This document shows, piece after piece, positions 1 through 11,229 of a DNA stretch of 11,229 bases. The notes under the pieces were generated by a model, which was not told the DNA's origin, did no database searches, and was given only the letters and a program-made list of their open reading frames with translations. Position numbers and translations under genes: made by a program. Position 1 is the first letter of the stretch. Every line of letters starts with the position of its first letter. Source of the stretch: a virus (taxonomy: Duplodnaviria; Heunggongvirae; Uroviricota; Caudoviricetes); the IMG/VR virus record IMGVR_UViG_2711768032_000007. One strand, written 5' to 3'.

Positions 1-1362
1 ATGTTTAAACCGGAACTCCTTTCCCCGGCGGGAACGCTGAAAAATATGCGTTACGCTTTCGCTTATGGCGCAGATGCTGTTTATGCGGGCCAGCCGCGTT
101 ACTCCCTGCGTGTGCGCAACAACGAATTCAACCACGAAAATCTTCAGCTCGGCATCAATGAAGCCCACGCGCTGGGGAAAAAGTTTTATGTCGTGGTCAA
201 CATTGCACCGCACAACGCCAAGCTGAAAACCTTTATCCGTGACCTGAAACCGGTGGTGGAAATGGGGCCGGATGCGCTGATTATGTCCGATCCAGGGCTG
301 ATTATGCTGGTGCGTGAGCACTTCCCGGAAATGCCGATCCATCTCTCAGTACAGGCTAACGCCGTGAACTGGGCGACGGTGAAATTCTGGCAGCAAATGG
401 GCCTGACCCGCGTGATCCTCTCTCGCGAGCTGTCGCTGGAAGAGATTGAAGAGATCCGCAATCATGTGCCGGATATGGAGATCGAGATCTTCGTTCACGG
501 CGCGCTGTGCATGGCCTACTCCGGTCGCTGCCTGCTCTCTGGCTATATCAACAAGCGCGACCCGAACCAGGGCACCTGCACCAACGCCTGCCGCTGGGAG
601 TACAACGTCCAGGAAGGGAAAGAAGATGACGTTGGCAACATCGTACACAAGTACGAGCCGATTCCGGTGCAAAATGTTGAGCCGACGCTGGGTATCGGCG
701 CACCAACCGACAAAGTGTTTATGATCGAAGAAGCCCAGCGTCCGGGCGAGTATATGACCGCGTTTGAAGATGAGCACGGCACTTACATCATGAACTCGAA
801 AGATCTGCGCGCTATCGCCCATGTTGAACGCCTGACCAAAATGGGCGTGCATTCGCTGAAAATCGAAGGCCGTACCAAATCTTTCTACTATTGCGCACGC
901 ACCGCACAGGTTTATCGTAAAGCTATCGATGATGCCGCTGCGGGCAAACCGTTCGATACCAGCCTGCTGGAAACTCTGGAAGGTCTGGCGCATCGTGGCT
1001 ATACCGAAGGTTTCCTGCGTCGTCATACTCACGACGATTATCAGAACTACGAATACGGTTATTCAGTTTCTGACCGCCAGCAGTTTGTTGGTGAGTTTAC
1101 CGGTGAGCGCAAGGGGGACCTCGCGGCGGTAGCGGTGAAAAATAAATTCTCCGTTGGCGACAGCCTTGAGCTGATGACGCCGCAAGGCAACATTAACTTT
1201 ACCCTTGAGCACATGGAAAACGCCAAAGGTGAAGCTATGCCGATAGCACCAGGCGATGGTTATACTGTGTGGCTCCCGGTCCCGCAGGATCTTGAGCTCA
1301 ATTACGCGCTGCTGATGCGTAATTTCTCCGGGGAAACCACGCGTAATCCCCACGGTAAGTGA
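1..1362 (+). CDS. trhP: tRNA hydroxylation protein TrhP (YegQ), peptidase U32 family
   Basis: 453-aa ORF starting at window position 1 (MFKPELLSPAGTLKNMRYAF...). Recognised from memory as E. coli YegQ/TrhP. Followed by cyaR, as in the E. coli K-12 yegQ-cyaR-ogrK locus. Confidence 0.9.
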   Translation: MFKPELLSPAGTLKNMRYAFAYGADAVYAGQPRYSLRVRNNEFNHENLQLGINEAHALGKKFYVVVNIAPHNAKLKTFIRDLKPVVEMGPDALIMSDPGLIMLVREHFPEMPIHLSVQANAVNWATVKFWQQMGLTRVILSRELSLEEIEEIRNHVPDMEIEIFVHGALCMAYSGRCLLSGYINKRDPNQGTCTNACRWEYNVQEGKEDDVGNIVHKYEPIPVQNVEPTLGIGAPTDKVFMIEEAQRPGEYMTAFEDEHGTYIMNSKDLRAIAHVERLTKMGVHSLKIEGRTKSFYYCARTAQVYRKAIDDAAAGKPFDTSLLETLEGLAHRGYTEGFLRRHTHDDYQNYEYGYSVSDRQQFVGEFTGERKGDLAAVAVKNKFSVGDSLELMTPQGNINFTLEHMENAKGEAMPIAPGDGYTVWLPVPQDLELNYALLMRNFSGETTRNPHGK

Positions 1363-1394
1363 TTAATTTCGATTATTTTTCCCGGATGGAAAAT

Positions 1395-1446
1395 TCTTAG
1401 AAACCGATCACATACAGCTGCATTTATTAAGGTTATCATCCGTTTC
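1395..1446 (+). promoter_or_regulatory. Putative cyaR promoter (-10-like TATCAT at 1434-1439; TCACA CRP-type half-site at 1408-1412)
   Basis: The -10-like hexamer ends 7 nt before the inferred cyaR 5' end at 1447. cyaR is known to be CRP-activated, but only one good CRP half-site is visible by eye. Position inferred, not measured. Confidence 0.4.
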
Positions 1447-1533
1447 GCTGAAAAACATAACCCATAAAATGCTAGCTGTACCAGGAACCACCTCCTTAGC
1501 CTGTGTAATCTCCCTTACACGGGCTTATTTTTT
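1447..1533 (+). ncRNA. cyaR: CyaR (RyeE) Hfq-binding small RNA
   Basis: 87-nt stretch GCTGAAAAACATAACCCATAAAATGCTAGCTGTACCAGGAACCACCTCCTTAGCCTGTGTAATCTCCCTTACACGGGCTTATTTTTT matches the E. coli CyaR sequence as I recall it. Ends in an intrinsic terminator hairpin (GCCTGTGTAA / TTACACGGGC) plus a U-run. Lies directly downstream of yegQ. Confidence 0.85.
1507..1533. other. P2-type attachment-site core (27 bp) at the ogr-proximal prophage-host junction
   Basis: Reverse complement of 1507-1533 is AAAAAATAAGCCCGTGTAAGGGAGATT, which matches the P2 att core as I recall it. It coincides with the cyaR terminator, a known P2 integration target in E. coli. ogr lies about 100 bp away, as expected for this prophage end. 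Confidence 0.75.
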
Positions 1534-1597
1534 ACGTGCAACAAATTGAAATAAAAGGATTTATTTCTGGTCACGTCCACACATTGACCACATCGAC

Positions 1598-1630
1598 AAA
1601 AAAGCCCCTCGACTGAGGGGCTTTCTGTTT
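1598..1630. terminator. Intrinsic terminator hairpin downstream of ogr (bidirectional in appearance)
   Basis: Perfect 9-bp stem AAGCCCCTC / GAGGGGCTT with loop GACT (1602-1623). Flanked by an A6 run on the plus strand (a U-run for the minus-strand ogr transcript) and by TCTGTTT on the other side. Confidence 0.6.
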
Positions 1631-1634
1631 GTAA

Positions 1635-1853
1635 TTACATCCACATAATTTGCTGCCCTGATGGCAACGGGTGCGGCCTTACGGCGTGGACTTCTCCCGG
1701 CTTCACGATGTATCGCTGTACCGACTCATAAGTGATGAACGTGGCACTGCAATTCACGTTCTGACACTGGTGATAACGCTCTTTTGTCGTGTCAGTGATA
1801 TAGCGGCTTGTACGCGCATGTGCGGCATGCTGGCATAAAGGACAATGAAACAT
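1635..1853 (-). CDS. ogr: Late gene transcription activator Ogr (zinc-finger)
   Basis: 72-aa product MFHCPLCQHAAHARTSRYITDTTKERYHQCQNVNCSATFITYESVQRYIVKPGEVHAVRPHPLPSGQQIMWM with the C-X2-C...C-X4-C zinc-binding pattern of P2 Ogr. GAGG-type Shine-Dalgarno motif upstream of the ATG at 1853. The six-frame ORF extends in frame to 1916, but the canonical 72-aa start is preferred. Confidence 0.85.
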   Translation of the reverse strand: MFHCPLCQHAAHARTSRYITDTTKERYHQCQNVNCSATFITYESVQRYIVKPGEVHAVRPHPLPSGQQIMWM

Positions 1854-1934
1854 CGCGAGCACCTCTTCCGGTTTTGTTGATGGTGCCATTTTAGTTAATT
1901 TATCCTTATAAAACAAATAGATAAAATAAAAACA

Positions 1935-3098
1935 TCACTCGTCATCTTCTGTTTCGTACTCCACATCAGAAAGCCTGACCTCAAGCTCCAGGGACGTCGT
2001 GAAGCCGCTATTATTCAGAAAATGTGTCACCTTAGTGATTGTCCAGTCCTGCTCGTCTATGACGCGCTTAAAGCCTGACACTTTGACCGGTGTTTCCGTG
2101 TAAATATCTGCACGACCGGTAGCCAGGCTGATGGAGAACTCCGCAACGCCCCGTTGCAGTTTATCCCACTTCGCCTGAGCGGCGCGCATGGCCTGCGCTT
2201 TCGTGGCATATACCGTGGTCAGGGCAAAAACATTGTCAGCCTCACCGGCCATGTATTCACCTTCGCGCGCTTCCGGTACTTTTGGCGCTTTCTTCTGCGT
2301 GACCGGTTTCGCTTTCGGGTGCTCCAGTGCGCGCAGGTGTTTCTCTTTCTTTTTGCGTTTCAGTTTTACCTTCTGCTTTTGTGGCTTCGGGTCTTTGGTA
2401 TGTAACCACTTTGCCGTTACGCCTGTGTAGGCTCCACGGTCAGCAATCGCAAAATGATGACGGTCGCCGTCGCTGCGGGTGATGGTAATCTGCGGGATTT
2501 TTTTACCGCTGGCCGTCACCCCCTGCCCCGCTTTGAGAAACAGCAGTTTTCCCATTTTTACCGACACCTCACCGCCGTTGCGTTCAGCAAGACGGGTCAG
2601 GAATTTCGCATCGGACTCCTGCGACTGGTCGATGTGCGGGATTTTAATTCCGGCCAGTGACGGAGCGACACTGGCTTCCAGCCTGTTACGGGAGGCAATC
2701 GCCTCAACAATCGCACCGAGCGTGGTGTCATGCCAGGAGCCTTCCCGGCGGGAATTGAGCGTGCCACGAAAATCTGCACTCCGGGCGCGGATGGTGACCA
2801 CATCCGGTGCGCCCCGGTGTTCAACCTCATCAACGGTGAATTTCCCCTTGCATACCAGGGCAAAACCTTTCCAGCCGATATACACCGTCAGGACAGCGCC
2901 ACGAACCGGCAGCCCGACCTGCCCGTCGGCATCGTTCAGTTCAATATCAAGCTGGTCAGCCTCAAAGCCCCGGTTATCCGTCAGGGTCATGCTCATCAGA
3001 CGGTCACTGATATTGCCGGTAATATCCCTGCTGTCGAGCATCAGCATGTAATCCGGCGTCAGCGTACTGCCTGCATCAAATGTCAGCGCATCCAGCAT
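1935..3098 (-). CDS. D: P2 gpD-like tail protein (late control gene D protein)
   Basis: 387-aa ORF with the same length and position as P2 gpD (after U, before ogr). Its start overlaps the U stop (TAATG). Confidence 0.9.
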   Translation of the reverse strand: MLDALTFDAGSTLTPDYMLMLDSRDITGNISDRLMSMTLTDNRGFEADQLDIELNDADGQVGLPVRGAVLTVYIGWKGFALVCKGKFTVDEVEHRGAPDVVTIRARSADFRGTLNSRREGSWHDTTLGAIVEAIASRNRLEASVAPSLAGIKIPHIDQSQESDAKFLTRLAERNGGEVSVKMGKLLFLKAGQGVTASGKKIPQITITRSDGDRHHFAIADRGAYTGVTAKWLHTKDPKPQKQKVKLKRKKKEKHLRALEHPKAKPVTQKKAPKVPEAREGEYMAGEADNVFALTTVYATKAQAMRAAQAKWDKLQRGVAEFSISLATGRADIYTETPVKVSGFKRVIDEQDWTITKVTHFLNNSGFTTSLELEVRLSDVEYETEDDE

Positions 3099-3577
3099 TA
3101 TCTCGCCCCCGTCATCCCCGTGAATCTGGTCGCCATACTGCCAGCCTTACCGATGAGCGATTCCGCCTGTTTACCGATATCGCCATAAAGCGCGGCCAGT
3201 GATTCATCAACGCGGGTGAGCGACAGCGTAAAATCAATTTTCCGGGGTGTGCCGTCTGCAAAGAAAATACTCCCTGTTTCACTCACCCTGCTGATGACAT
3301 ACATGCCGTAAATCATGCCGGTGCCATCCAGCAACGGCCACGCCCGGCCTTCCTCTGCCATCAGCCTGAGCGTGGTCATCGTCAGCTTCCCGCCGGTCAG
3401 TTCGGGATAAAGCACGCCGGCAAGCGTCATGTTTTCCTCACCCACACCGAGAAACTGAAAGGCATCCCGTTTACCGATACGGGAATTTGACGGCCAGCGA
3501 TAATCTGATTCGCGCTGCATGGTCTGGTGTGGCAGCGTCTGGCGCATAAAAACAAACATACCTAACGCGAGCATCAT
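3098..3577 (-). CDS. U: P2 gpU-like tail protein
   Basis: 159-aa ORF between T and D, matching P2 gpU in length and position. Stop codon overlaps the D start, suggesting translational coupling. Confidence 0.9.
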   Translation of the reverse strand: MMLALGMFVFMRQTLPHQTMQRESDYRWPSNSRIGKRDAFQFLGVGEENMTLAGVLYPELTGGKLTMTTLRLMAEEGRAWPLLDGTGMIYGMYVISRVSETGSIFFADGTPRKIDFTLSLTRVDESLAALYGDIGKQAESLIGKAGSMATRFTGMTGAR

Positions 3578-3591
3578 TTTTCGTCACCTCC

Positions 3592-6039
3592 TTAACCGTC
3601 ATGCATCATGCTGGCACGGGCGCGCGCACGTTTATCCCGCTCGTATTTTTCGAGCGCATCCTGTAACTGGCGGTCGAGCTGAGTCCCCGGCGCAGTACCG
3701 CCCGTCAGACTGATGTGATATTCGTTTTTACTCTGGTCCACATAAGAGCGGCCAGCCGGTGCCGTAACCGGCTGATAAGCCTGATAGCCTGCATAAGAGC
3801 TGGTCGCCGGAATATAACCACCGGTGCCATACGTGGCGGCATGAGTTCTGGCGGCAGTCTGGTCAAGTGCGTCAGACTCTTTGTTGATAACACCGAGTTT
3901 TTCCAGTACCCAGTCAATACCACTGCGCAGTTTGTTGAACGCACTAAGCGGCAGCATCAACGCGTCAGCCAGTGCCTGCCCGAACATGACGCCCGTGTCA
4001 CGGCAACGATTCAGGGTGTCCTGGGTGGCTTTGACCGGGGCAATCAGGTTTTTAAACCACTGCCACGCGGCCTGTAACTTTTCACCCAGCCAGTCAAACA
4101 CCGGTTTAAGTGGCGTGAACAGTTCCCCCACCGGCGCAAATGCCGCTTTCAGCCCTTCCACCACACCGCCAAAGAATGCGCTGACAGGCTCCCAGTATTT
4201 ACGGATAAGCAACGCCCCGGCGACAATAGCGGCCACCACGGCCACAACCGGCCAGCTAATCGCCCCGATGGCCGTCATAACAGCACTGCCAACCGTCGTG
4301 AAGATTGCCCCCATTGCGCCTGCTGCCGCGATGATGGCATTGATGCCGGTGATAACCGGCCAGGCTACAAGACCAATGGCACCGATGATGCCAGTAAGTG
4401 CCAGCGCGCCACCGGCAATGAGGCCAATGGTTGACGCCAGTGATTTGTTTTTCTGGATCCAGCCGTCGAGTTTTAACACATACTTTGTGGCCGTCTGCGT
4501 GAGCTTACGCAGTGCGCCTTCCTGCTGGTCAAACAGGTCAGTCCCCACCGCCTCATAAGCGGACTGAAACTCCTTAAAGTCACCGCCGAGGTTGTCCTGC
4601 ATGATATTTACCAGCTCTGCGGTCTTCCCGTCTGAGGCTTTAAACGCAGCGGTCAGTTTGTCCAGCTTTCCGGTTGAGGCGGCAGTCATCAGCACAGCGG
4701 CGGCTGAGCTGGCCTCCTCCCCGAAAATGGTTTTCATGTATTCAGCCTGCTGGGCAGTACCGAGCCGGTTTTTCTCAAAACTGGCCTGCATTTCTTTCAG
4801 AATGGTAAATACTGGTCGGGTGTTTCCCTTGCTGTCTGAGGTTTTCACACCAAGCTCTTTCAGTGCATCCCATGCTTTTCCCGTCGGTGCCTGCAGGCGG
4901 CTTAACACGGCACGGCTTCCCGTCCCCGCCATTGAACCGGTAATTTTTGCGTCATGCAGCGCCCCGACCATTGCGGCGGTTTCTTCAATGCTGACACCGG
5001 CATTTTTTGCCACTGGTGCGGCATAGGTCAGCGCATCGCTCATACCGTCAAAATCGGCGGCGGTTTTGTTCATCGTCATGGAGAGAACATCCCCGATATG
5101 AGCGACCTTATCGTTTGAAAGCTGAAAGGCGGATTTCATCCCCATCAGCAGGGCGGCGTTTTCTTCCATCGTGCGGCGGTTCGCCAGCGCCATATTCAGC
5201 GTGACCGGCGTTGCCGCCTGAATGGCATCAACATCCCCACCGGCTTTCGCAATGATAATCTGCGCACCGGCAGCATCATCCGCCGAGGCGGCAGTATTGT
5301 CGCCGAGCTGGCGCGCCTGTTTGCGGAGCGCGGCCATTTCGGCGGAATCTTTTGCCACACCGAGCACAGCCTGCAATTCTGAGTTTTTCTGCGCAAACTC
5401 ATAACCGGGCATCAGCAGCTTAACTCCGGCCATCGTTCCCGCCGCCGCAATCCCCACACCGGCAGCGCCCACTGAGGCCATATTTCCGGCAAGTTCTTTT
5501 CCTGCCTGATAACGCTGTTTGACTGCGTTAAGTTTTGCCTGTTGTGCACTGACACGCGCCAGCGCGTCACGCTGCCGGTTAAGCTGTGCGGTGGTTTCAC
5601 TGATACGGTTTTTCAGCCCCTGCTCATCATGTGCAAGATTGCGGGTATTAATTCCCACAGCGGCCAGTTCCCGCTGCTGGCGTTTAACGGAATCCGTCAG
5701 GCGGTTATATTTCGCCTGTAAGTCCTCCGCCGCACGCTTTGCGGATTCCAGCACTTTCGCCTGAGCACGGGTCGGACGTTCAGTGTTTTTAAACTGTGTG
5801 GCAAGTGCTTCGGCCTCCTGCCGTGCCTTTTCAAGTGCATGACCAGTCACGGCGAGCTGTGCACTGGTCTTGCGAAACCCCTCAATACGGGATGCCTGAC
5901 CGTTCAGCTCGCGCAGTGATTTTTGTGTTTCCCGGATATCCCCCGACAGCGACTTACTCGCTGTGCGGATGGATTTAAACGGGCGGGATGCCTGGTCAAC
6001 AGCCCTGAGCAATACCTGTAATTTTACATTGTTACTCAT
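3592..6039 (-). CDS. T: P2 gpT-like tail tape measure protein
   Basis: 815-aa ORF with coiled-coil-like Ala/Gln-rich N-terminal part and Gly/Ala-rich hydrophobic segments typical of tape measure proteins. Length and position (after E/E', before U) match P2 gpT. Confidence 0.9.
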   Translation of the reverse strand: MSNNVKLQVLLRAVDQASRPFKSIRTASKSLSGDIRETQKSLRELNGQASRIEGFRKTSAQLAVTGHALEKARQEAEALATQFKNTERPTRAQAKVLESAKRAAEDLQAKYNRLTDSVKRQQRELAAVGINTRNLAHDEQGLKNRISETTAQLNRQRDALARVSAQQAKLNAVKQRYQAGKELAGNMASVGAAGVGIAAAGTMAGVKLLMPGYEFAQKNSELQAVLGVAKDSAEMAALRKQARQLGDNTAASADDAAGAQIIIAKAGGDVDAIQAATPVTLNMALANRRTMEENAALLMGMKSAFQLSNDKVAHIGDVLSMTMNKTAADFDGMSDALTYAAPVAKNAGVSIEETAAMVGALHDAKITGSMAGTGSRAVLSRLQAPTGKAWDALKELGVKTSDSKGNTRPVFTILKEMQASFEKNRLGTAQQAEYMKTIFGEEASSAAAVLMTAASTGKLDKLTAAFKASDGKTAELVNIMQDNLGGDFKEFQSAYEAVGTDLFDQQEGALRKLTQTATKYVLKLDGWIQKNKSLASTIGLIAGGALALTGIIGAIGLVAWPVITGINAIIAAAGAMGAIFTTVGSAVMTAIGAISWPVVAVVAAIVAGALLIRKYWEPVSAFFGGVVEGLKAAFAPVGELFTPLKPVFDWLGEKLQAAWQWFKNLIAPVKATQDTLNRCRDTGVMFGQALADALMLPLSAFNKLRSGIDWVLEKLGVINKESDALDQTAARTHAATYGTGGYIPATSSYAGYQAYQPVTAPAGRSYVDQSKNEYHISLTGGTAPGTQLDRQLQDALEKYERDKRARARASMMHDG

Positions 6040-6459
6040 TCGTGTTTCCGCTTCGCCGGAGCGCCTTTTCGCGCCATGTGATGAGTTCGGTCAGGCTCAT
6101 GGGATACAGTTCTGATGGCGGCCAGTGAAATATCACTGCCACATCCGCCATCAGGTCATCGACCGAGAGATTTTTCGGGAACGTCACTGCACCGAGTTCG
6201 GCGACAAAAAACCGACCACCTTACCGGCCAGCGCCACAAGGTCAGGCAGTTCCAGTGCGGCGACCTCCTGCTCGGTCAGCATCGGTGCCGTCATGCGCGG
6301 CAGCACTTTAATCAGTGCATCGACTTCGGAGTTTGCGACCGCAGCCAGACTGACACCGCGCAGCGTCCCGGCATTAGGTTTCATCAGCGTGACCTGTTCG
6401 ATAACCTGCTCACCACGCTTGACCGGATTGTCCAGGGTAATCACATTTTCTTTGTTCAT
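6032..6459 (-). CDS. E+E': Tail assembly chaperone E+E' (product of a programmed -1 ribosomal frameshift)
   Basis: Manual translation: a -1 slip on T_TTT_TTG (6205-6211, minus strand) continues the E reading frame in an open frame to a TAA at 6032-6034. That stop lies just past the T start codon (6037-6039). Same architecture as P2 E/E'. Confidence 0.65.
6184..6459 (-). CDS. E: Tail assembly chaperone gpE (zero-frame product)
   Basis: 91-aa ORF MNKENVITLDNPVKRGEQ...GKVVGFLSPNSVQ. Size and position (between FII and T) match P2 gpE. Contains the slippery heptamer near its 3' end. Confidence 0.85.
   Translation of the reverse strand: MNKENVITLDNPVKRGEQVIEQVTLMKPNAGTLRGVSLAAVANSEVDALIKVLPRMTAPMLTEQEVAALELPDLVALAGKVVGFLSPNSVQ
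6205..6211 (-). promoter_or_regulatory. Slippery heptamer T_TTT_TTG for the E to E' programmed -1 frameshift
   Basis: Plus strand reads CAAAAAA at 6205-6211. On the minus strand, in the E frame, this is GGT TTT TTG encoding G-F-L of ...VVGFLSPNSVQ. Conserved recoding site of P2-like and many other tailed phages. Confidence 0.7.
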
Positions 6460-6487
6460 GGTTTTCTCACTTCTGAATCGGGGTTAA

Positions 6488-6508
6488 CCGGTCAGCCAGG
6501 CTGACCGG
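6488..6508 (-). other. Perfect intercistronic hairpin between FII and E (9-bp stem, 3-nt loop)
   Basis: CCGGTCAGC cag GCTGACCGG. No U-run follows on the minus strand, so it is more likely an RNA processing or stability element than a terminator. Confidence 0.4.
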
Positions 6509-6515
6509 ATGAAAA

Positions 6516-7034
6516 TCACAGGCCGATATTGCGGCGGTGTTGCTCCAGCCGGTCGACGCCGTTCACCTTCTCAATCATGTTGATGGTGTCGATTTCGACC
6601 AGCTCCTTACCGTCCATCGTCAGCCGGAAATAGGTGCAGACCACGGAGATTTTCGACTCGGTGTCTTCTCCCTGTTTGCCCTCGCCGGTGTCGATTTCTT
6701 TCTGACGTCCACGCATGACCACCTCGACGGCCACCGTTTCGCCGGTATCGTCGCGCTGGTAAGAGCCTGCAAAACGAATCGGTACGGCATCCACACCGGT
6801 TGCGGCGTAAAGCTCCCAGATAACCGAATCCGGGAAGCCCCCGAGCGACCACTCCATTGACAGCGCATCGTCATCAAGGCCGAGGTCTACCGGTGCGCTG
6901 CCGTTCATCCCCGCACCGCGATAGTTTTCAAGCTTACGGGTCAGTTTTGGCAGCGTGACGGACTTTGCAACGCCCTGATAGCTGTAGCCGTTCAGAAAGA
7001 CGTTCATTAACTTGAGTTTGCGCGGCATTGCCAT
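6516..7034 (-). CDS. FII: P2 gpFII-like tail tube protein
   Basis: 172-aa ORF directly downstream of the sheath gene with a GGAG ribosome-binding site. Length and position match P2 gpFII. Confidence 0.9.
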   Translation of the reverse strand: MAMPRKLKLMNVFLNGYSYQGVAKSVTLPKLTRKLENYRGAGMNGSAPVDLGLDDDALSMEWSLGGFPDSVIWELYAATGVDAVPIRFAGSYQRDDTGETVAVEVVMRGRQKEIDTGEGKQGEDTESKISVVCTYFRLTMDGKELVEIDTINMIEKVNGVDRLEQHRRNIGL

Positions 7035-7046
7035 CGGTCAGGCTCC

Positions 7047-8237
7047 TTAATTGCTGTTAACCGAAGTGACCAGATTTGCCAGGTATTTATCGGTAATACG
7101 CTGGCGCAGGGTCAGGTTTTCAAGAGGAGGCACCGGTGTATAGTCGTAGTCGATATACAGTTTTCCGGCCTTGAGGGTTTCCGCATCGTTGGATTCTTCG
7201 CTGAACCAGCAGGTCGCATCCACGATATAGCCGTTTGTTTTCAGCTCACGGAATTTGGCATTGATGCCGTCAACGATGTCGCGAATCAGCGTTGCTGTGA
7301 TGGGCTTATCCACCGCCCACATATGCGCCTCAGCCATCGTGTCGGCCAGCACCTGCGCGGTGCGGGTGTAGTTTTCAAAGAGGAACAGCGGGTCATCAGA
7401 GCAGGTACGGTTACCCCAGAATCGGAAACCGTCGCGGCGAATCAGCGTAGTGACGCCTGACTCGTTAAGCAGGTCAGCATCGGTGCCGGACTCCTGCAAA
7501 TCCCAGAATACAGATGCGCTGATGCCGGTAACACCGTTTACCCCGACGTTGGACAGCGTTTTATGCCAGCCCTGCTCCTGGTCGATTTTAGCGCGCAGAC
7601 CCAGCGCACGGGCGGTGGCATACGCGGTGGCGGTGGTGCTGCTGACCGTATCCCATGCGAGGAAATCCGGCCAGATGACCATCAGCTCACGCTGGCTGAA
7701 ATTCTGACGGTAGGCTTTCACCTCGGAAATGGTTTTACAGCCCCATGCGCTGATATACCCGAAAGCGCGCAGCTTCTGACAGACTGATGCCAGTGCAACA
7801 GCCACCTCTTTGGTGTCCAGTCCCGGCACGCCGAGAATACGCGGTTTAACACCGGTTACCGACTCCGCCGCCAGCAGGGCTTTCAGTCCGGTGTACTGAC
7901 CGTTTTCGTCGGTGGTGCCGATGATATTGGAAACGGTCTGCGCGAGTTTCGTTTCCTCGTCGTCGCCGGTGCCGTCTTCCACACGCACGACAACGGTGAC
8001 CGGTTTTGACTGGTCGGCGATGGCCTGCAACGATGCCGCCAGCGTGCCTTTTTTACCAGCCTTTGCAATTGCGCTCTGCACATTGGTAATCAGCACCGGT
8101 TTATTGATGGGGAAGGTTTCCGCATCCGCATCGCTGGCCGTGCAGACCATGCCGACAATGGCCGTGGATACGGTGGAAATGACGCGGGTGCCGTCGTTAA
8201 TCTCCAGCACCTGCACGCCGTGATGATAGTCACTCAT
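7047..8237 (-). CDS. FI: P2 gpFI-like contractile tail sheath protein
   Basis: 396-aa ORF, first gene of the FI-FII-E-T-U-D operon. GGAG ribosome-binding site 8 nt upstream of the ATG. Length and position match P2 gpFI. Confidence 0.9.
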   Translation of the reverse strand: MSDYHHGVQVLEINDGTRVISTVSTAIVGMVCTASDADAETFPINKPVLITNVQSAIAKAGKKGTLAASLQAIADQSKPVTVVVRVEDGTGDDEETKLAQTVSNIIGTTDENGQYTGLKALLAAESVTGVKPRILGVPGLDTKEVAVALASVCQKLRAFGYISAWGCKTISEVKAYRQNFSQRELMVIWPDFLAWDTVSSTTATAYATARALGLRAKIDQEQGWHKTLSNVGVNGVTGISASVFWDLQESGTDADLLNESGVTTLIRRDGFRFWGNRTCSDDPLFLFENYTRTAQVLADTMAEAHMWAVDKPITATLIRDIVDGINAKFRELKTNGYIVDATCWFSEESNDAETLKAGKLYIDYDYTPVPPLENLTLRQRITDKYLANLVTSVNSN

Positions 8238-8268
8238 CCGTTTAACTCCGTGGTTAATGGGTGCAACT

Positions 8269-8315
8269 ATTATCCGTTGGGTAGTACATGAGACGCTATT
8301 TGACCTGGCTGGTCA
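8269..8315 (-). promoter_or_regulatory. Candidate late promoter for the FI operon (-10-like GATAAT, weak -35, upstream dyad TGACC-N5-GGTCA)
   Basis: On the minus strand, GATAAT lies at 8274-8269 with a poor -35, as expected for an activator-dependent promoter. A dyad sits at 8301-8315. A canonical Ogr-type TGT-N12-ACA site was NOT found by eye, so the call is weak. Confidence 0.3.
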
Positions 8316-8330
8316 GTGGATGAAACATCA

Positions 8331-8361
8331 GATAAAGAAAAGGCGGGCAATCTGCCCGCCT
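8331..8361 (-). terminator. Intrinsic terminator (minus strand) separating the accessory island from the FI operon
   Basis: Perfect 9-bp stem AGGCGGGCA / TGCCCGCCT with a 3-nt loop (8341-8361). On the minus strand it is followed by TTTCTTTATC. Confidence 0.5.
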
Positions 8362-8592
8362 GTCCTGATTTGTACACACTCATTTTCCGACTGACAATTT
8401 ACATAGCCAAAATGCTATCAAATCTGACAGCCTGTTTTGAGCGAAGAGGAACCTGAGATTGTGGTATGCTAATTTATGGGGAGCAGGTCAATTGTATTAG
8501 TTATCTTTTTGCCTTTCTTTATCCCATTTCTTTACAGTGGTCTGATACCACTCTTCACGTGTTCGTTATTCCTCTGCTCTGTCACTTGAATT

Positions 8593-9189
8593 TTAGTTGT
8601 CTGTTTTAATTTTTTTGCTTCCCTGGGAAATCGGCCTCCAGTCTTCTCTAATATTTTTCATCTGCTCAGCTATCTGTGTCATTGGACTCCTTGCACCTAA
8701 GTAGCTAACCCCCTCGAAAGAAGCCATATCATAAGAATACTCATTCCGCTCTCTTTCAGTTGAGCCCGGCTGTTTAGACCAGCTAATACTAACAGAATAA
8801 ACTTGATCTTTAATCTGGTCATACTTACAAAGACTGCTGTTGAGGGAATGGCCGTTTTTCAATACGCTAACCTTGCTAAATGGTATACCTTTATTTTTTC
8901 TATGTTCTGCATTAACCAGTGGGGGATTAAATCCGACTTCAATATCATAGGCTGGGGCATTTCCGGTATTAGCAATATTGATATCAAAATAAAAAGCAGC
9001 CCAAGAATTTGGTTCAAGAGTCACAACGACATGAGGTTGAACTGATGCGTCAACCATCCTTTTTGTCTCGTCTGCTAATAGCCTTGTTACTCTCCACAAG
9101 AAAAATGTAGCAACTGCTGTTAGCAATGCTGCCAAAGCGGAGATAAGTGTACTTACTGTGTTTATATGCTCTGCGATAAATTCGATCAT
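8593..9189 (-). CDS. Hypothetical membrane-anchored protein (198 aa; one N-terminal transmembrane helix plus ~160-aa soluble domain), accessory cargo
   Basis: ORF with an AAGGA ribosome-binding site about 7 nt upstream of the ATG. Residues ~11-32 (TVSTLISALAALLTAVATFFLW) form a hydrophobic helix. AT-rich codon usage unlike the flanking tail genes. No family recognised. Confidence 0.6.
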   Translation of the reverse strand: MIEFIAEHINTVSTLISALAALLTAVATFFLWRVTRLLADETKRMVDASVQPHVVVTLEPNSWAAFYFDINIANTGNAPAYDIEVGFNPPLVNAEHRKNKGIPFSKVSVLKNGHSLNSSLCKYDQIKDQVYSVSISWSKQPGSTERERNEYSYDMASFEGVSYLGARSPMTQIAEQMKNIREDWRPISQGSKKIKTDN

Positions 9190-9609
9190 GAGTTGTCCTT
9201 GGGGGCGTACTAATTGTTTTCAATACTAAAATAGCGCCGGGCTTGAAAAATTGCACACTTATGGTTCGATTTACCTCAACAGTTAAGGCTTCAACTTCCC
9301 CCATGCACCTCACCCAGCCCAAGACTGTATGAGGTCTGACAAAGAACTTCCTGACACTTGAAAACGAGGCAACGGCTAGGGTTTCTCGTAGGGCAAGGAT
9401 TGAATACGAAGCCTGTATATTGCTCCGCGAACGCTGCTGAGGGCAGTTTAAATGTTGGGCGTTTATGTAGCCTTTCACTCACCAGCATGAGTTCAATGTC
9501 TGTGAGTTACCGACAACAATATAAAGGGGGTGGCATCATCATATATCCAAGCTAGAGTCAAATCCTCTAACTGGTTTTATGATCAGTGTCAATTGTTTGA
9601 TTATTGAAC

Positions 9610-9638
9610 GTTTACGAAGCAGCACGGGAGCCATATAA
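9610..9638 (+). promoter_or_regulatory. Candidate sigma70 promoter for the DUF3606-like gene (TTTACG-N17-TATAAC)
   Basis: -35-like TTTACG at 9610-9615 and -10-like TATAAC at 9633-9638 with 17-bp spacing. The predicted start lies downstream of the 9642 ATG, which favours the 9681 start codon. Confidence 0.3.
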
Positions 9639-9680
9639 CTAATGGGCAGGTATAAGCCTGTATCACGAGGAATCAGTAAA

Positions 9681-9860
9681 ATGGCTGATGATAAGACCAA
9701 AATCGGTACCCCTGACAATGATTTAATAAGTATCAAACAGGATTACGAGAGACGTGATTGGGCTGAAAAGTTTGGAGTTAGCGAGACCAAACTTGTTCAA
9801 GCCGTACAGGCTGTAGGTCATTCGGCTAAGAAAGTACAGGCATGGCTTAAAGACCATTAA
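9681..9860 (+). CDS. DUF3606-like small protein (59 aa from ATG 9681; alternative 72-aa form from ATG 9642)
   Basis: MADDKTKIGTPDNDLISIKQDYERRDWAEKFGVSETKLVQAVQAVGHSAKKVQAWLKDH fits the DUF3606 pattern as I recall it (N-terminal MADDK..., central EKFGVS, C-terminal AV..VG). AGGA ribosome-binding site at 9668-9671. Confidence 0.65.
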   Translation: MADDKTKIGTPDNDLISIKQDYERRDWAEKFGVSETKLVQAVQAVGHSAKKVQAWLKDH

Positions 9861-9866
9861 TATATG

Positions 9867-9890
9867 AGCGCCTTTCTAGGCGCTTTTTTC
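9867..9890 (+). terminator. Intrinsic terminator after the DUF3606-like gene
   Basis: 7-bp stem AGCGCCT / AGGCGCT with loop TTCT, followed by TTTTTT (9885-9890). Confidence 0.5.
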
Positions 9891-9912
9891 TTTGTCCTTT
9901 GGGGGATGATTT

Positions 9913-10191
9913 ATGGCTAATAATTTATTTATTACTTACGACCTCATTAAAACGAAAGATTATGCGGCTGTGTATGATGCAATTAAATCTTTAGGAAATT
10001 GGGCTTTAACAACTGAATCGAACTGGTATGTTAACTGTAGTTACTCTGCCGAGGATGCAGCCAAAATTGTGAGGGCGGTCATGGATAGTGATGATAAGCT
10101 TATTGTTGTAGACGCAACCAATAACTCAGCTTATTGGTACAATCTCTCAGATGAAGTTAGTAACCAAATTCTGACTGAGTGGAACAAGTAA
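9913..10191 (+). CDS. Hypothetical small protein (92 aa), accessory cargo
   Basis: Strong GGGGGA Shine-Dalgarno motif 6 nt upstream of the ATG. Alternating hydrophobic and polar segments suggest a compact alpha/beta domain. No family recognised. Confidence 0.55.
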   Translation: MANNLFITYDLIKTKDYAAVYDAIKSLGNWALTTESNWYVNCSYSAEDAAKIVRAVMDSDDKLIVVDATNNSAYWYNLSDEVSNQILTEWNK

Positions 10192-10220
10192 TTAAAGGGG
10201 GTGGGTAGCCCCCTTTAATT
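10190..10220. terminator. Long perfect hairpin (12-bp stem) downstream of the 92-aa ORF, probable terminator
   Basis: AATTAAAGGGGG tgggtag CCCCCTTTAATT. The 3' half of the stem carries the U-rich tract. It lies between the convergent 92-aa ORF (plus) and tfa (minus). Confidence 0.5.
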
Positions 10221-10411
10221 CAGAAACTATCATGATTGAAACATTAAATATACTGGGTTAATTCTTTCATCCTTGCTCCCTTGCTATATGTCCTGAAAGC
10301 GTCCTTTTTAGCCTTCTGCTCAGTATGTCCGGTAATGGCACAGAGCGGACTGCCAGATTAGGCTTTACTCTGTGCCATAGATATGTAATCTCACACCAGA
10401 GCTTATACAAC

Positions 10412-10960
10412 TTATTGCGGCATTTCCGGCCATTCAGGATTTGCAGGATCCACACGACTGACCAAAACGCTGTAGCGTTCCCAAGCCTCCAGCCGTGTGC
10501 GCTCCTCCTCTGTTGCCATGTTCAGCCTGACAGCGCGCTCCAGCGGCAAAATCACGGATTCAGCATCTGCAAGAAGTCTGGCTTTCCGATTTTCTGCCTG
10601 CTGCTGCAATTCCTCTGCCGTATAAATGCGTTTAATCACTTTGCCGTCCTTAAACATCCAGTTCCCTGAAATGTCCGCCCGTCGGTTAGCAGTAATATCC
10701 GCCACTTCAACCACACTTAATCCATCCGGTCTGATAGCTGTCACATCCTTTTCCACATAGCGGATGATATTATCTTTGTCGTACGCTATTTTTATCGTGT
10801 CATCAGCAAAATACTTTTGTTCTTCGTACCAGTTCTTACCATCTTCTGTAAAAAACCAGACGACATCAAAGTTCTTTGTCAATTGATATTGTTCAACCGT
10901 TTTTGGATTACCTGCCGTTATATTTATCAAATGCTGCGTATTTTCATGAAAGGAGATCAC
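10412..10960 (-). CDS. G: Tail fibre assembly protein (P2 gpG / Tfa family); 5' end atypical and possibly disrupted
   Basis: C-terminal half (...[28 protein letters not shown]...[42 protein letters not shown]) is typical of Tfa chaperones, and AGNPKT is present near the N-terminus. The ORF has no in-frame ATG near the expected start: ACG sits where the family start Met is expected. The called start is a GTG at 10958-10960 that lies inside an IS-like repeat. Confidence 0.75.
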
Positions 10961-11072
10961 TCAATAACTTCCATCGAGATCGGGTAATAACATTTGAACA
11001 GATCGCTGAATAACATCGATGGAGATCACTTTTGACTCATTTTGTTATTCAGTGATCTCCATCAATGTTATT
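10952..11072. repeat. Cluster of direct and inverted repeats (GGAGATCACT / AATAAC motifs) resembling the multi-repeat terminus of an IS21-family element
   Basis: GGAGATCACTCAATAAC at 10952-10968. AATAACATCGATGGAGATCACT at 11009-11030 and its near-perfect inverse AGTGATCTCCATCAATGTTATT at 11051-11072 (21/22). Six GATC sites between 10955 and 11095. Confidence 0.5.
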
Positions 11073-11127
11073 GGAACTTCACAGGTGTGTTGATCTGTAT
11101 CTTTTGCCATTCCGGTAAAGGATACCT

Positions 11128-11229
11128 ATGCCAACAGTTCCAATTTCTATGAGAAAACTTAAAGAAATTCTTAGGCTTAAATACGGTGTTGGACTCAGCC
11201 ATCGACAAATTGGTCGTAGTCTTGCAATC
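11128..11229 (+). CDS. istA: IS21-family transposase IstA, N-terminal fragment (truncated by window end)
   Basis: MPTVPISMRKLKEILRLKYGVGLSHRQIGRSLAI resembles the conserved N-terminal helix-turn-helix of IS21-family IstA proteins (MRK-I/L-K/R-E-I/V-LRL...GLS.R.IA pattern) as I recall it. AAGGA ribosome-binding site 6 nt upstream. Only 34 codons are in the window. Confidence 0.5.
   Translation, partial: MPTVPISMRKLKEILRLKYGVGLSHRQIGRSLAI

Follow-up and report, generated by a model that had tools for sequence, protein, structure and literature searches.

A P2-like prophage attR junction within the cyaR sRNA terminator

Results

The window analysed in this study is a stretch of 11,229 nucleotides (IMG/VR record IMGVR_UViG_2711768032_000007), and coordinates refer to it unless another record is named. 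It begins with the host gene yegQ (trhP; 1-1362, + strand), an ORF that carries this annotation at the corresponding place in S40, FXCREC004 and K-12. Downstream on the same strand lies the sRNA gene cyaR (ryeE; 1447-1533, +, 87 nt), an arrangement common to 120 Enterobacterales loci. The assignment of cyaR was based on Rfam family RF00112, allele identity and the fold. The Rfam match itself covers 1445-1530 (+) and the full model (1-85) with a score of 100.7 bits (gathering score, 47; E-value, 1.1e-19), while 1447-1533 represents the 87-nt RNA with its full U-tract. These 87 nt fold into the expected anti-Shine-Dalgarno hairpin, an 11-bp terminator hairpin (1498-1525) and the tail UUAUUUUUU. 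The Rho-independent terminator (1498-1533, +) was recognised from the Rfam structure line, a terminator scan and a hairpin ΔG of -15.5 kcal/mol; it consists of a stem (1498-1508 / 1515-1525), a loop (1509-1514) and a U-tract (1526-1533). The tail contains the run of at least six U residues of an Hfq-binding module, and such a U-tail is needed for the action of Hfq. All 87 nt are identical to the allele of ca. 4,821 of 5,426 complete Escherichia coli genomes, non-lysogens included, and this is the allele studied in K-12.

The last 27 nt of cyaR (1507-1533, +), AATCTCCCTTACACGGGCTTATTTTTT, had been taken in the initial annotation for the reverse complement of the P2 att core. This proved correct: the segment matches at 27/27 positions the feature that the P2 record AF063097 names 'attP' / 'Int attP core', which lies on the opposite strand at 24356-24382. 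The window contains a single copy of the segment, and none of 200 shuffled sequences contained it, even when three mismatches were allowed. The window was aligned with P2 attP, the K-12 remnant and an unoccupied locus (yegQ-cyaR-yegR-yegS of O103 FWSEC0007). AATCTCCCTTACACGGGCTTATTTTTT was invariant across the four sequences; the window matched the host to the left of it and P2 to the right. The boundaries obtained independently by BLAST agreed with this, the homology to P2 beginning at 1507 and that to the unoccupied locus stopping at 1533/1534. Between 1507 and 2000 the window is 97.6% identical to P2 (494 nt). The segment is thus shared by the host attB and P2 attP as the common core of the junction. 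It spans the last 2 nt of the terminator 5' arm, the loop, the entire 3' arm and the U-tract, and the terminator 5' arm at 1498-1506 is host DNA. Since the phage and host cores are identical, the insertion is predicted to leave the CyaR RNA unaltered here, with the same hairpin and U-tail for Hfq as before, and CyaR expression would be normal in the lysogen. For annotation, this means that cyaR is to be treated as intact, the prophage boundary set at 1507, and the core not scored separately.

Three regulatory sites follow the core and, together with ogr, are ordered and spaced as in P2. An IHF binding site of the P2 P arm was predicted by homology at 1532-1565 from the protein_bind feature 'IHF' of AF063097 (1526-1559 in locus L001, offset +6), with two mismatches relative to P2. 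The putative Int arm-type binding site (P arm; 1569-1596) is identical at 28/28 positions to the 'Int P arm' of AF063097, GGTCACGTCCACACATTGACCACATCGA. The third site (1601-1624) is annotated in P2 as the ogr / F operon terminator. The same stretch also reads as a hairpin with a T-run on the + strand, between the convergent genes cyaR and ogr. From its sequence, 1601-1624 is likely a backstop for transcription reading through cyaR, about 70-90 nt downstream of that gene, and the empty site has no equivalent of it. In AF063097, the ogr side of attP carries the IHF site, the Int P arm and the ogr terminator, and the int side carries the Cox sites and the P' arm. Because the Cox sites are located on the int side and belong to attL (PMC3936717), the ogr-side junction in the window corresponds to attR.

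The remainder of the window holds the late genes in the order known from P2, namely ogr, D, U, T, E/E', FII, FI, cargo, G and part of H. This order, ogr-D-U-T-E'/E-FII-FI-(cargo)-G-H, was established from the ORFs and from the annotations of near-identical genomes. The gene ogr (1635-1853, - strand) encodes the late-gene activator, a 72-aa zinc-finger protein (Pfam Ogr_Delta, E-value 1.1e-21; annotated as ogrK or ogr in relatives). Its stop codon (1635) lies 101 nt past the end of the core, in line with the spacing of about 100 bp noted earlier. It is followed on the - strand by a full-length gene D (late control D / tail protein; 1935-3098; ORF, P2 and S40 annotation), and then by genes assigned from their ORFs and the S40 annotation: U (tail protein; 3098-3577), T (tape measure; 3592-6039), E and E+E' (tail assembly chaperones; 6032-6459, overlapping ORFs 6184-6459 and 6032-6187; 'phage tail assembly protein' and 'GpE family' in S40), FII (tail tube; 6516-7034) and FI (tail sheath; 7047-8237). 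Gene G (tail fibre assembly; 10412-10939, -) was assigned by Pfam Caudo_TAP (E-value, 1.8e-34) and the S40 annotation. The 3' end of the tail fibre gene H (10943-11229, -), placed by the position of the S40 'tail fiber protein' CDS, is cut by the end of the window, and identity to relatives falls past 10940. Each late gene between ogr and G, both included, is present as a full-length ORF. The window ends inside the tail-fibre genes and no integrase was found in it, as had been anticipated. The initial annotation had inferred a prophage integrated in cyaR, and the succession of host DNA, 27-bp core, P2 IHF site, P arm, ogr terminator, ogr and D-U-T-E-FII-FI agrees with that view.

The segment between FI and G (8238-10411), a known P2 hotspot for accessory genes called the 'Z-region', is 98.7% identical to the record AJ512682, 'P2-EC53 proviral Z-region'. 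It contains a hypothetical protein of 198 aa (8593-9189, -; 230 aa in AJ512682), a DUF3606 protein identified by Pfam (9642/9681-9860, +) and a hypothetical protein of 92 aa (9913-10191, +). A role of this cargo in defence was considered and rejected, as PADLOC gave no match and DUF3606 was the only Pfam family. A search for repeats of at least 20 nt recovered none of the inverted repeats annotated in AJ512682.

The far end of the prophage was studied in relatives. The closest lysogen, FXCREC004, is 99.6% identical to the window over 1-10940 (10.9 kb); identity of the IMG/VR loci to the window is at most 97.7%. FXCREC004 carries a further identical core, directly oriented, that lies between a P2-type int and yegR. 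It stands after the P2 P' arm and before a right flank exactly like that of the unoccupied site. The arrangement recurs in six IMG/VR E. coli contigs that include both junctions, and a core copy was also found on the int side in TR01 and APEC O1. A second core accompanied by int, which the initial annotation had named as the counterpart of this junction, is thus present in the relatives, and the remainder of the window prophage is presumably present beyond the window. The FXCREC004 prophage (locus L005, 24705-32162) is degraded, with ISApl1 in the portal gene and a deletion that joins a capsid gene to a tail-fibre gene. Because the prophage of this closest relative is degraded, that of the window may be defective too. 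In the A-Q hotspot of FXCREC004, genes of an ABC-three-component system were observed.

Identical cores hide the position of the crossover in the window, and it was bounded by lysogens in which the phage and host cores are unlike. The core region varies among 120 species, and the exact P2 version occurs in only five. The native core of E. albertii reads ...ACGCAGG.... In an IMG/VR contig resembling E. albertii (host flank, 98.5% identical), the cyaR side is of the P2 type, ACACGGG, and the int side shows the E. albertii-type ACGCAGG joined to an E. albertii-specific right flank. E. coli APEC O1 is the mirror image, with ACGCAGG and P2-like arms on the cyaR side and ACACGGG with the E. coli right flank on the int side. 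In both of these reciprocal lysogens, core positions 13 and 15 have the phage bases on the cyaR side and the host bases on the int side, which confines the crossover to the part of the core left of position 13. At least ACGGGCTTATTTTTT is thus phage DNA in a lysogen, and this stretch takes in the entire U-tract and the greater part of the 3' arm. The bound set by these lysogens is core positions 1-12; judged from the core sequences, the phage contribution to the terminator would begin somewhere within this interval. The earlier proposal that the phage supplies the 3' hairpin and the U-tract is upheld by the two lysogens, with the refinement that the 5' arm at 1498-1506 belongs to the host.

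The ACGCAGG arm was counted among complete genomes. A CyaR allele with exactly this 3' arm is present in ca. 30 of the 5,426 E. coli genomes, including the type strain ATCC 11775 and APEC O1 (locus L249; 1730 and 25001). These two are lysogens, and such lysogens have the native ACACGGG at the int-side junction. The APEC O1 copy of the prophage is disrupted by an IS. Strains 2018-11-1BCC and LH13-b are non-lysogens, yet they have ACGCAGG fused to the normal right flank. A third allele, ACACAGG, was found in a non-lysogen. The calculated hairpin ΔG values were -15.5 kcal/mol for ACACGGG (as in the window), -15.8 kcal/mol for ACGCAGG and -16.2 kcal/mol for ACACAGG; the three E. coli 3'-arm alleles are predicted by this folding to be energetically near-neutral for hairpin stability.

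It had been suggested that a divergent phage core would change CyaR. This holds for rare junctions elsewhere, and not for the window. The Enterobacter-like IMG/VR contig 2568526497_000005 has the 5' arm GCCTGCGT facing a P2-type 3' arm, which results in a C·A mismatch in the stem; the calculated ΔG is -11.6 kcal/mol, as compared to -17.0 kcal/mol for the native hairpin of this host. A second case is E. coli O157:H7 TR01 (NZ_CP033605.1; locus L247, 1606-1700 and 33621-33652). On the cyaR side, ...GTGTAAT is joined after core position 3 to GTCAGTTATTGGTGACATTTTTT..., and the right part of this joint corresponds to the attP of P24A7b/WPhi-type phages, whose Int is 52% identical. On the int side, TR01 has a perfect P2 core and an Int protein 100% identical to P2 Int. 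The hybrid junction is unique among the 5,426 genomes. An assembly artefact from two P2-like prophages was judged unlikely, because the joint lies in sequence unique to each partner and not in their common repeat. CyaR of TR01 has lost its native 3' arm altogether, and its predicted terminator is weak (-6.8 kcal/mol); read-through would be caught by the ogr terminator ca. 90 nt downstream. The two cores of TR01 have just their first 3 bp in common, so that its prophage is probably locked in.

The unoccupied site in E. coli was itself compared with P2. Its right flank (locus L002, 2835-3638) is also found after the second core in FXCREC004 and in TR01. In this flank, CTGGTCAC-N7-CATTGACCACATCGA agrees with the P2 P arm at 24 of 30 positions, and the spacing is likewise that of P2. 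In 20,000 shuffles the score never rose above 21, and across 318 genuine host windows it never rose above 18. Some E. coli lineages have kept a longer relic that resembles the IHF region, and E. albertii has a different P2-like relic of its own. In Escherichia sp. E1V33, Citrobacter and Klebsiella, cyaR almost directly abuts yegS. Relative to E1V33, E. coli has ca. 800 bp of extra, E. coli-specific sequence, yegR included, and this segment ends in a decayed core, AATCCTCCATACTTGAACTGACTTTTTA (L002, 3611-3638; 19/28 positions as compared to a P2-type core), which sits exactly where synteny with the scar-free E1V33 site resumes. These sequence features give the 'empty' E. coli attB the appearance of a scar left by an old P2-like insertion.

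Two other candidates were evaluated in this flank. The short AATCTCCCTT, 3 nt past the relic P arm, was treated as uncertain as a second core, since the remainder did not align; it is the start of a hairpin at the place expected of the ogr terminator, and the better distal relic is that at 3611-3638. YegR as a phage or Ogr-like gene would have lent weight to the scar reading, but was rejected, as it had no Pfam family and no similarity to Ogr; a tblastn search with YegR found only two phage records, both apparently with host flank.

P2-like arms follow cyaR in hosts of all three core types, and therefore the site is used across Enterobacteriaceae, with phage cores that track the host stems. 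Citrobacter youngae (L095 and L120) and Enterobacteriaceae bacterium G50 (L108) have a P2-like IHF site and P arm after cyaR together with the host's own core. The distance from the core to ogr at these loci is 500-1,050 nt instead of ca. 100 nt, indicating an extra segment between the P arm and ogr. A further locus, that of Enterobacter hormaechei B56 (CP170191.1), has a P2-type core, with cyaR and its upstream region identical to E. coli over the stretch inspected. Its right flank is unlike the E. coli flank or the P2 arms and resembles that of L131, a P2-like int-side junction with a Klebsiella/Enterobacter-type ACGCGGG core. The B56 locus may be mislabelled or recombinant.

Discussion

On the strength of the core identity, the flanking phage sites and the late-gene order, 1507-1533 is almost certainly the attR of a P2-like (Peduovirus) prophage integrated site-specifically in the 3' half of the cyaR terminator. 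We propose the following course of events. A tyrosine recombinase would act at the classical E. coli P2 site, which is the 3' half of the cyaR terminator, and the phage would bring its own 27-bp copy of this terminator segment as the attP core. Int, aided by IHF on the adjacent P arm, would exchange strands in the left part of the core. As a consequence, cyaR would retain its own promoter, body and 5' stem arm, while its 3' stem arm and U-tract would physically be phage DNA. The displaced host core would come to lie ca. 30 kb away beside int, so that int, the P' arm, AATCTCCCTTACACGGGCTTATTTTTT and then ATGCATAAGCCC... and yegR are expected at the far end.

Tyrosine-recombinase sites usually consist of two inverted core-type sites that flank the overlap. 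From this architecture, the strand-exchange (overlap) region would be the loop TCTCCC at core positions 3-8, and the two stem arms would be the inverted Int core sites. The odd joint of TR01 between core positions 3 and 4 is consistent with this assignment. A literature search for the exact cleavage positions of P2 Int did not find them.

Could the prophage lie beside cyaR, the RNA ending before the core and the 27-bp identity being purely intergenic? The older P2 literature gives this idea some footing, as the P2 integrase paper, in which cyaR goes unmentioned, has P2-type phages integrating 'between other genes' (PMC3448106). However, the Rfam terminator 3' arm and tail align to 1515-1530, within the core, and without 1515-1525 the 5' arm at 1498-1508 is unpaired. 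Loss of the core in TR01 leaves a hairpin of -6.8 instead of -15.5 kcal/mol, and we consider integration beside the gene to be scarcely credible. Even less probable, to the point of being negligible, is that the 27-mer is a chance or low-complexity likeness and the downstream genes come from an unrelated element; the T-rich tail of the core speaks for it and nothing else, against which stand the shuffling result, the identity to P2 over 1507-2000 and the P2 gene order.

A crossover at the right edge of the core would make the whole CyaR terminator host DNA, with nothing from the phage. The identical cores of the window are compatible with such a position, but in the two independent reciprocal lysogens the bases at positions 13 and 15 are those of the phage next to cyaR and those of the host next to int, and the Enterobacter-like host shows a P2-type 3' arm facing its own 5' arm. 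We thus regard a right-edge crossover as very improbable. A different matter is whether the junction is still a working attR or the fossil of a defective, non-excisable P2 remnant. K-12, with merely ogr and a truncated D ending in a partial second core, and the insertions and deletion in FXCREC004 and APEC O1 make a fossil conceivable; on the other side, every gene from ogr to G in the window is a full-length ORF, and the related prophages of S40 and TR01 appear complete. A defective remnant is somewhat less than an even prospect in our judgement, and it is compatible with the main explanation of how the junction was formed, i.e. site-specific integration of a P2-like phage into the cyaR terminator.

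A P2-type prophage in cyaR is a known and ordinary arrangement, and the element in the window uses the canonical P2 attachment site, the preferred site, which we take to be 'locI'. A P2-type arm and ogr directly follow cyaR in ca. 1,126 of the 5,426 complete E. coli genomes (21%), K-12 counted in. For P2-type elements of strains W, K-12 and B, 'cyaR RNA' has been given as the site of insertion, and the elements named there are Wphi2, ogr-D' and P2*B (Archer et al. 2011, PMC3032704 Table 2). Our search for literature linking cyaR with attB found nothing relevant. In K-12 only ogr and a truncated D remain at cyaR. The ogrK-D' remnant of K-12 XL1-Blue (locus L003, ca. 3940-3965) has the interior of gene D joined directly to a terminal, shortened second core, TACACGGGCTTATTTTTTT (7 T), which implies that a deletion took everything from the middle of D through int and the first 9-10 nt of the second core. 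This K-12 remnant was reportedly described by Barreiro and Haggard-Ljungquist in 1992. What the present analysis adds is small and would not surprise a specialist: the bound on the crossover, the exchange by phages of alleles of the CyaR terminator, the damage to this terminator in two cases, and the scar at the 'empty' site.

The window element matches P2 at its preferred site and the K-12 ogrK-D' remnant in its 27-bp core, IHF site, P arm, ogr terminator and ogr, in how these are ordered and oriented, and in the host flanks yegQ/cyaR and yegR/yegS. It is not P2 itself, being ca. 97.6% identical at the junction and carrying Z-region cargo of the P2-EC53 type, whereas P2 has Z/fun. Phages of the WPhi / L-413C / P24A7b type have the same P-arm, IHF and ogr architecture from GAAATAAAAGG on, but their core is different (..GTCAGTTATTGGTGACATTTTTT..) and their integrase is just 52% identical; WPhi-type phages use another site, cpxP-fieF (PMC3032704 Table 2). 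The logic by which the target is rebuilt is the same as that at the 3' ends of tRNA and tmRNA genes. There, too, the element carries the 3' part of a structured RNA gene, and the stem-loop provides inverted symmetry for a tyrosine recombinase. Examples of integration at the 3' ends of structured RNA genes are 186 in tRNA-Ile, HP1 in tRNA-Leu and Fels-2/SopEPhi in ssrA (PMC3448106). Unlike these targets with their tRNA-like fold, cyaR offers the intrinsic terminator of an Hfq-dependent regulatory sRNA. At 27 bp the duplication is short, and within it lies the element on which termination and Hfq binding both depend.

It may be asked whether P2-like phages have, over a longer time, overwritten the CyaR 3' arm and U-tract, such that the E. 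coli-typical arm ACACGGGC is DNA brought in by a phage and since fixed. The scar-like 'empty' site, with its relic IHF/P arm just past the core and its decayed second core, speaks for this idea. E. albertii and Escherichia sp. E1V33, the closest relatives, carry ACGCAGGC as their arm, and so do the outgroups Salmonella and Citrobacter. Furthermore, the swap is visible today in both directions, and the swapped allele has been kept in two non-lysogens. Against this, Kluyvera has an E. coli-type arm at a scar-free site, and the G-to-A change at position 13 is also expected of ordinary compensatory evolution. Fixation of an imported arm is thus offered here as a tentative and rather unlikely reading.

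In these phages the recombination core is the very segment that serves a global regulator as terminator and Hfq-binding module. Phage traffic can therefore alter the regulatory RNA and leave its promoter and seed region untouched. The altered junctions constitute natural alleles for testing terminator strength against CyaR level and Hfq loading.
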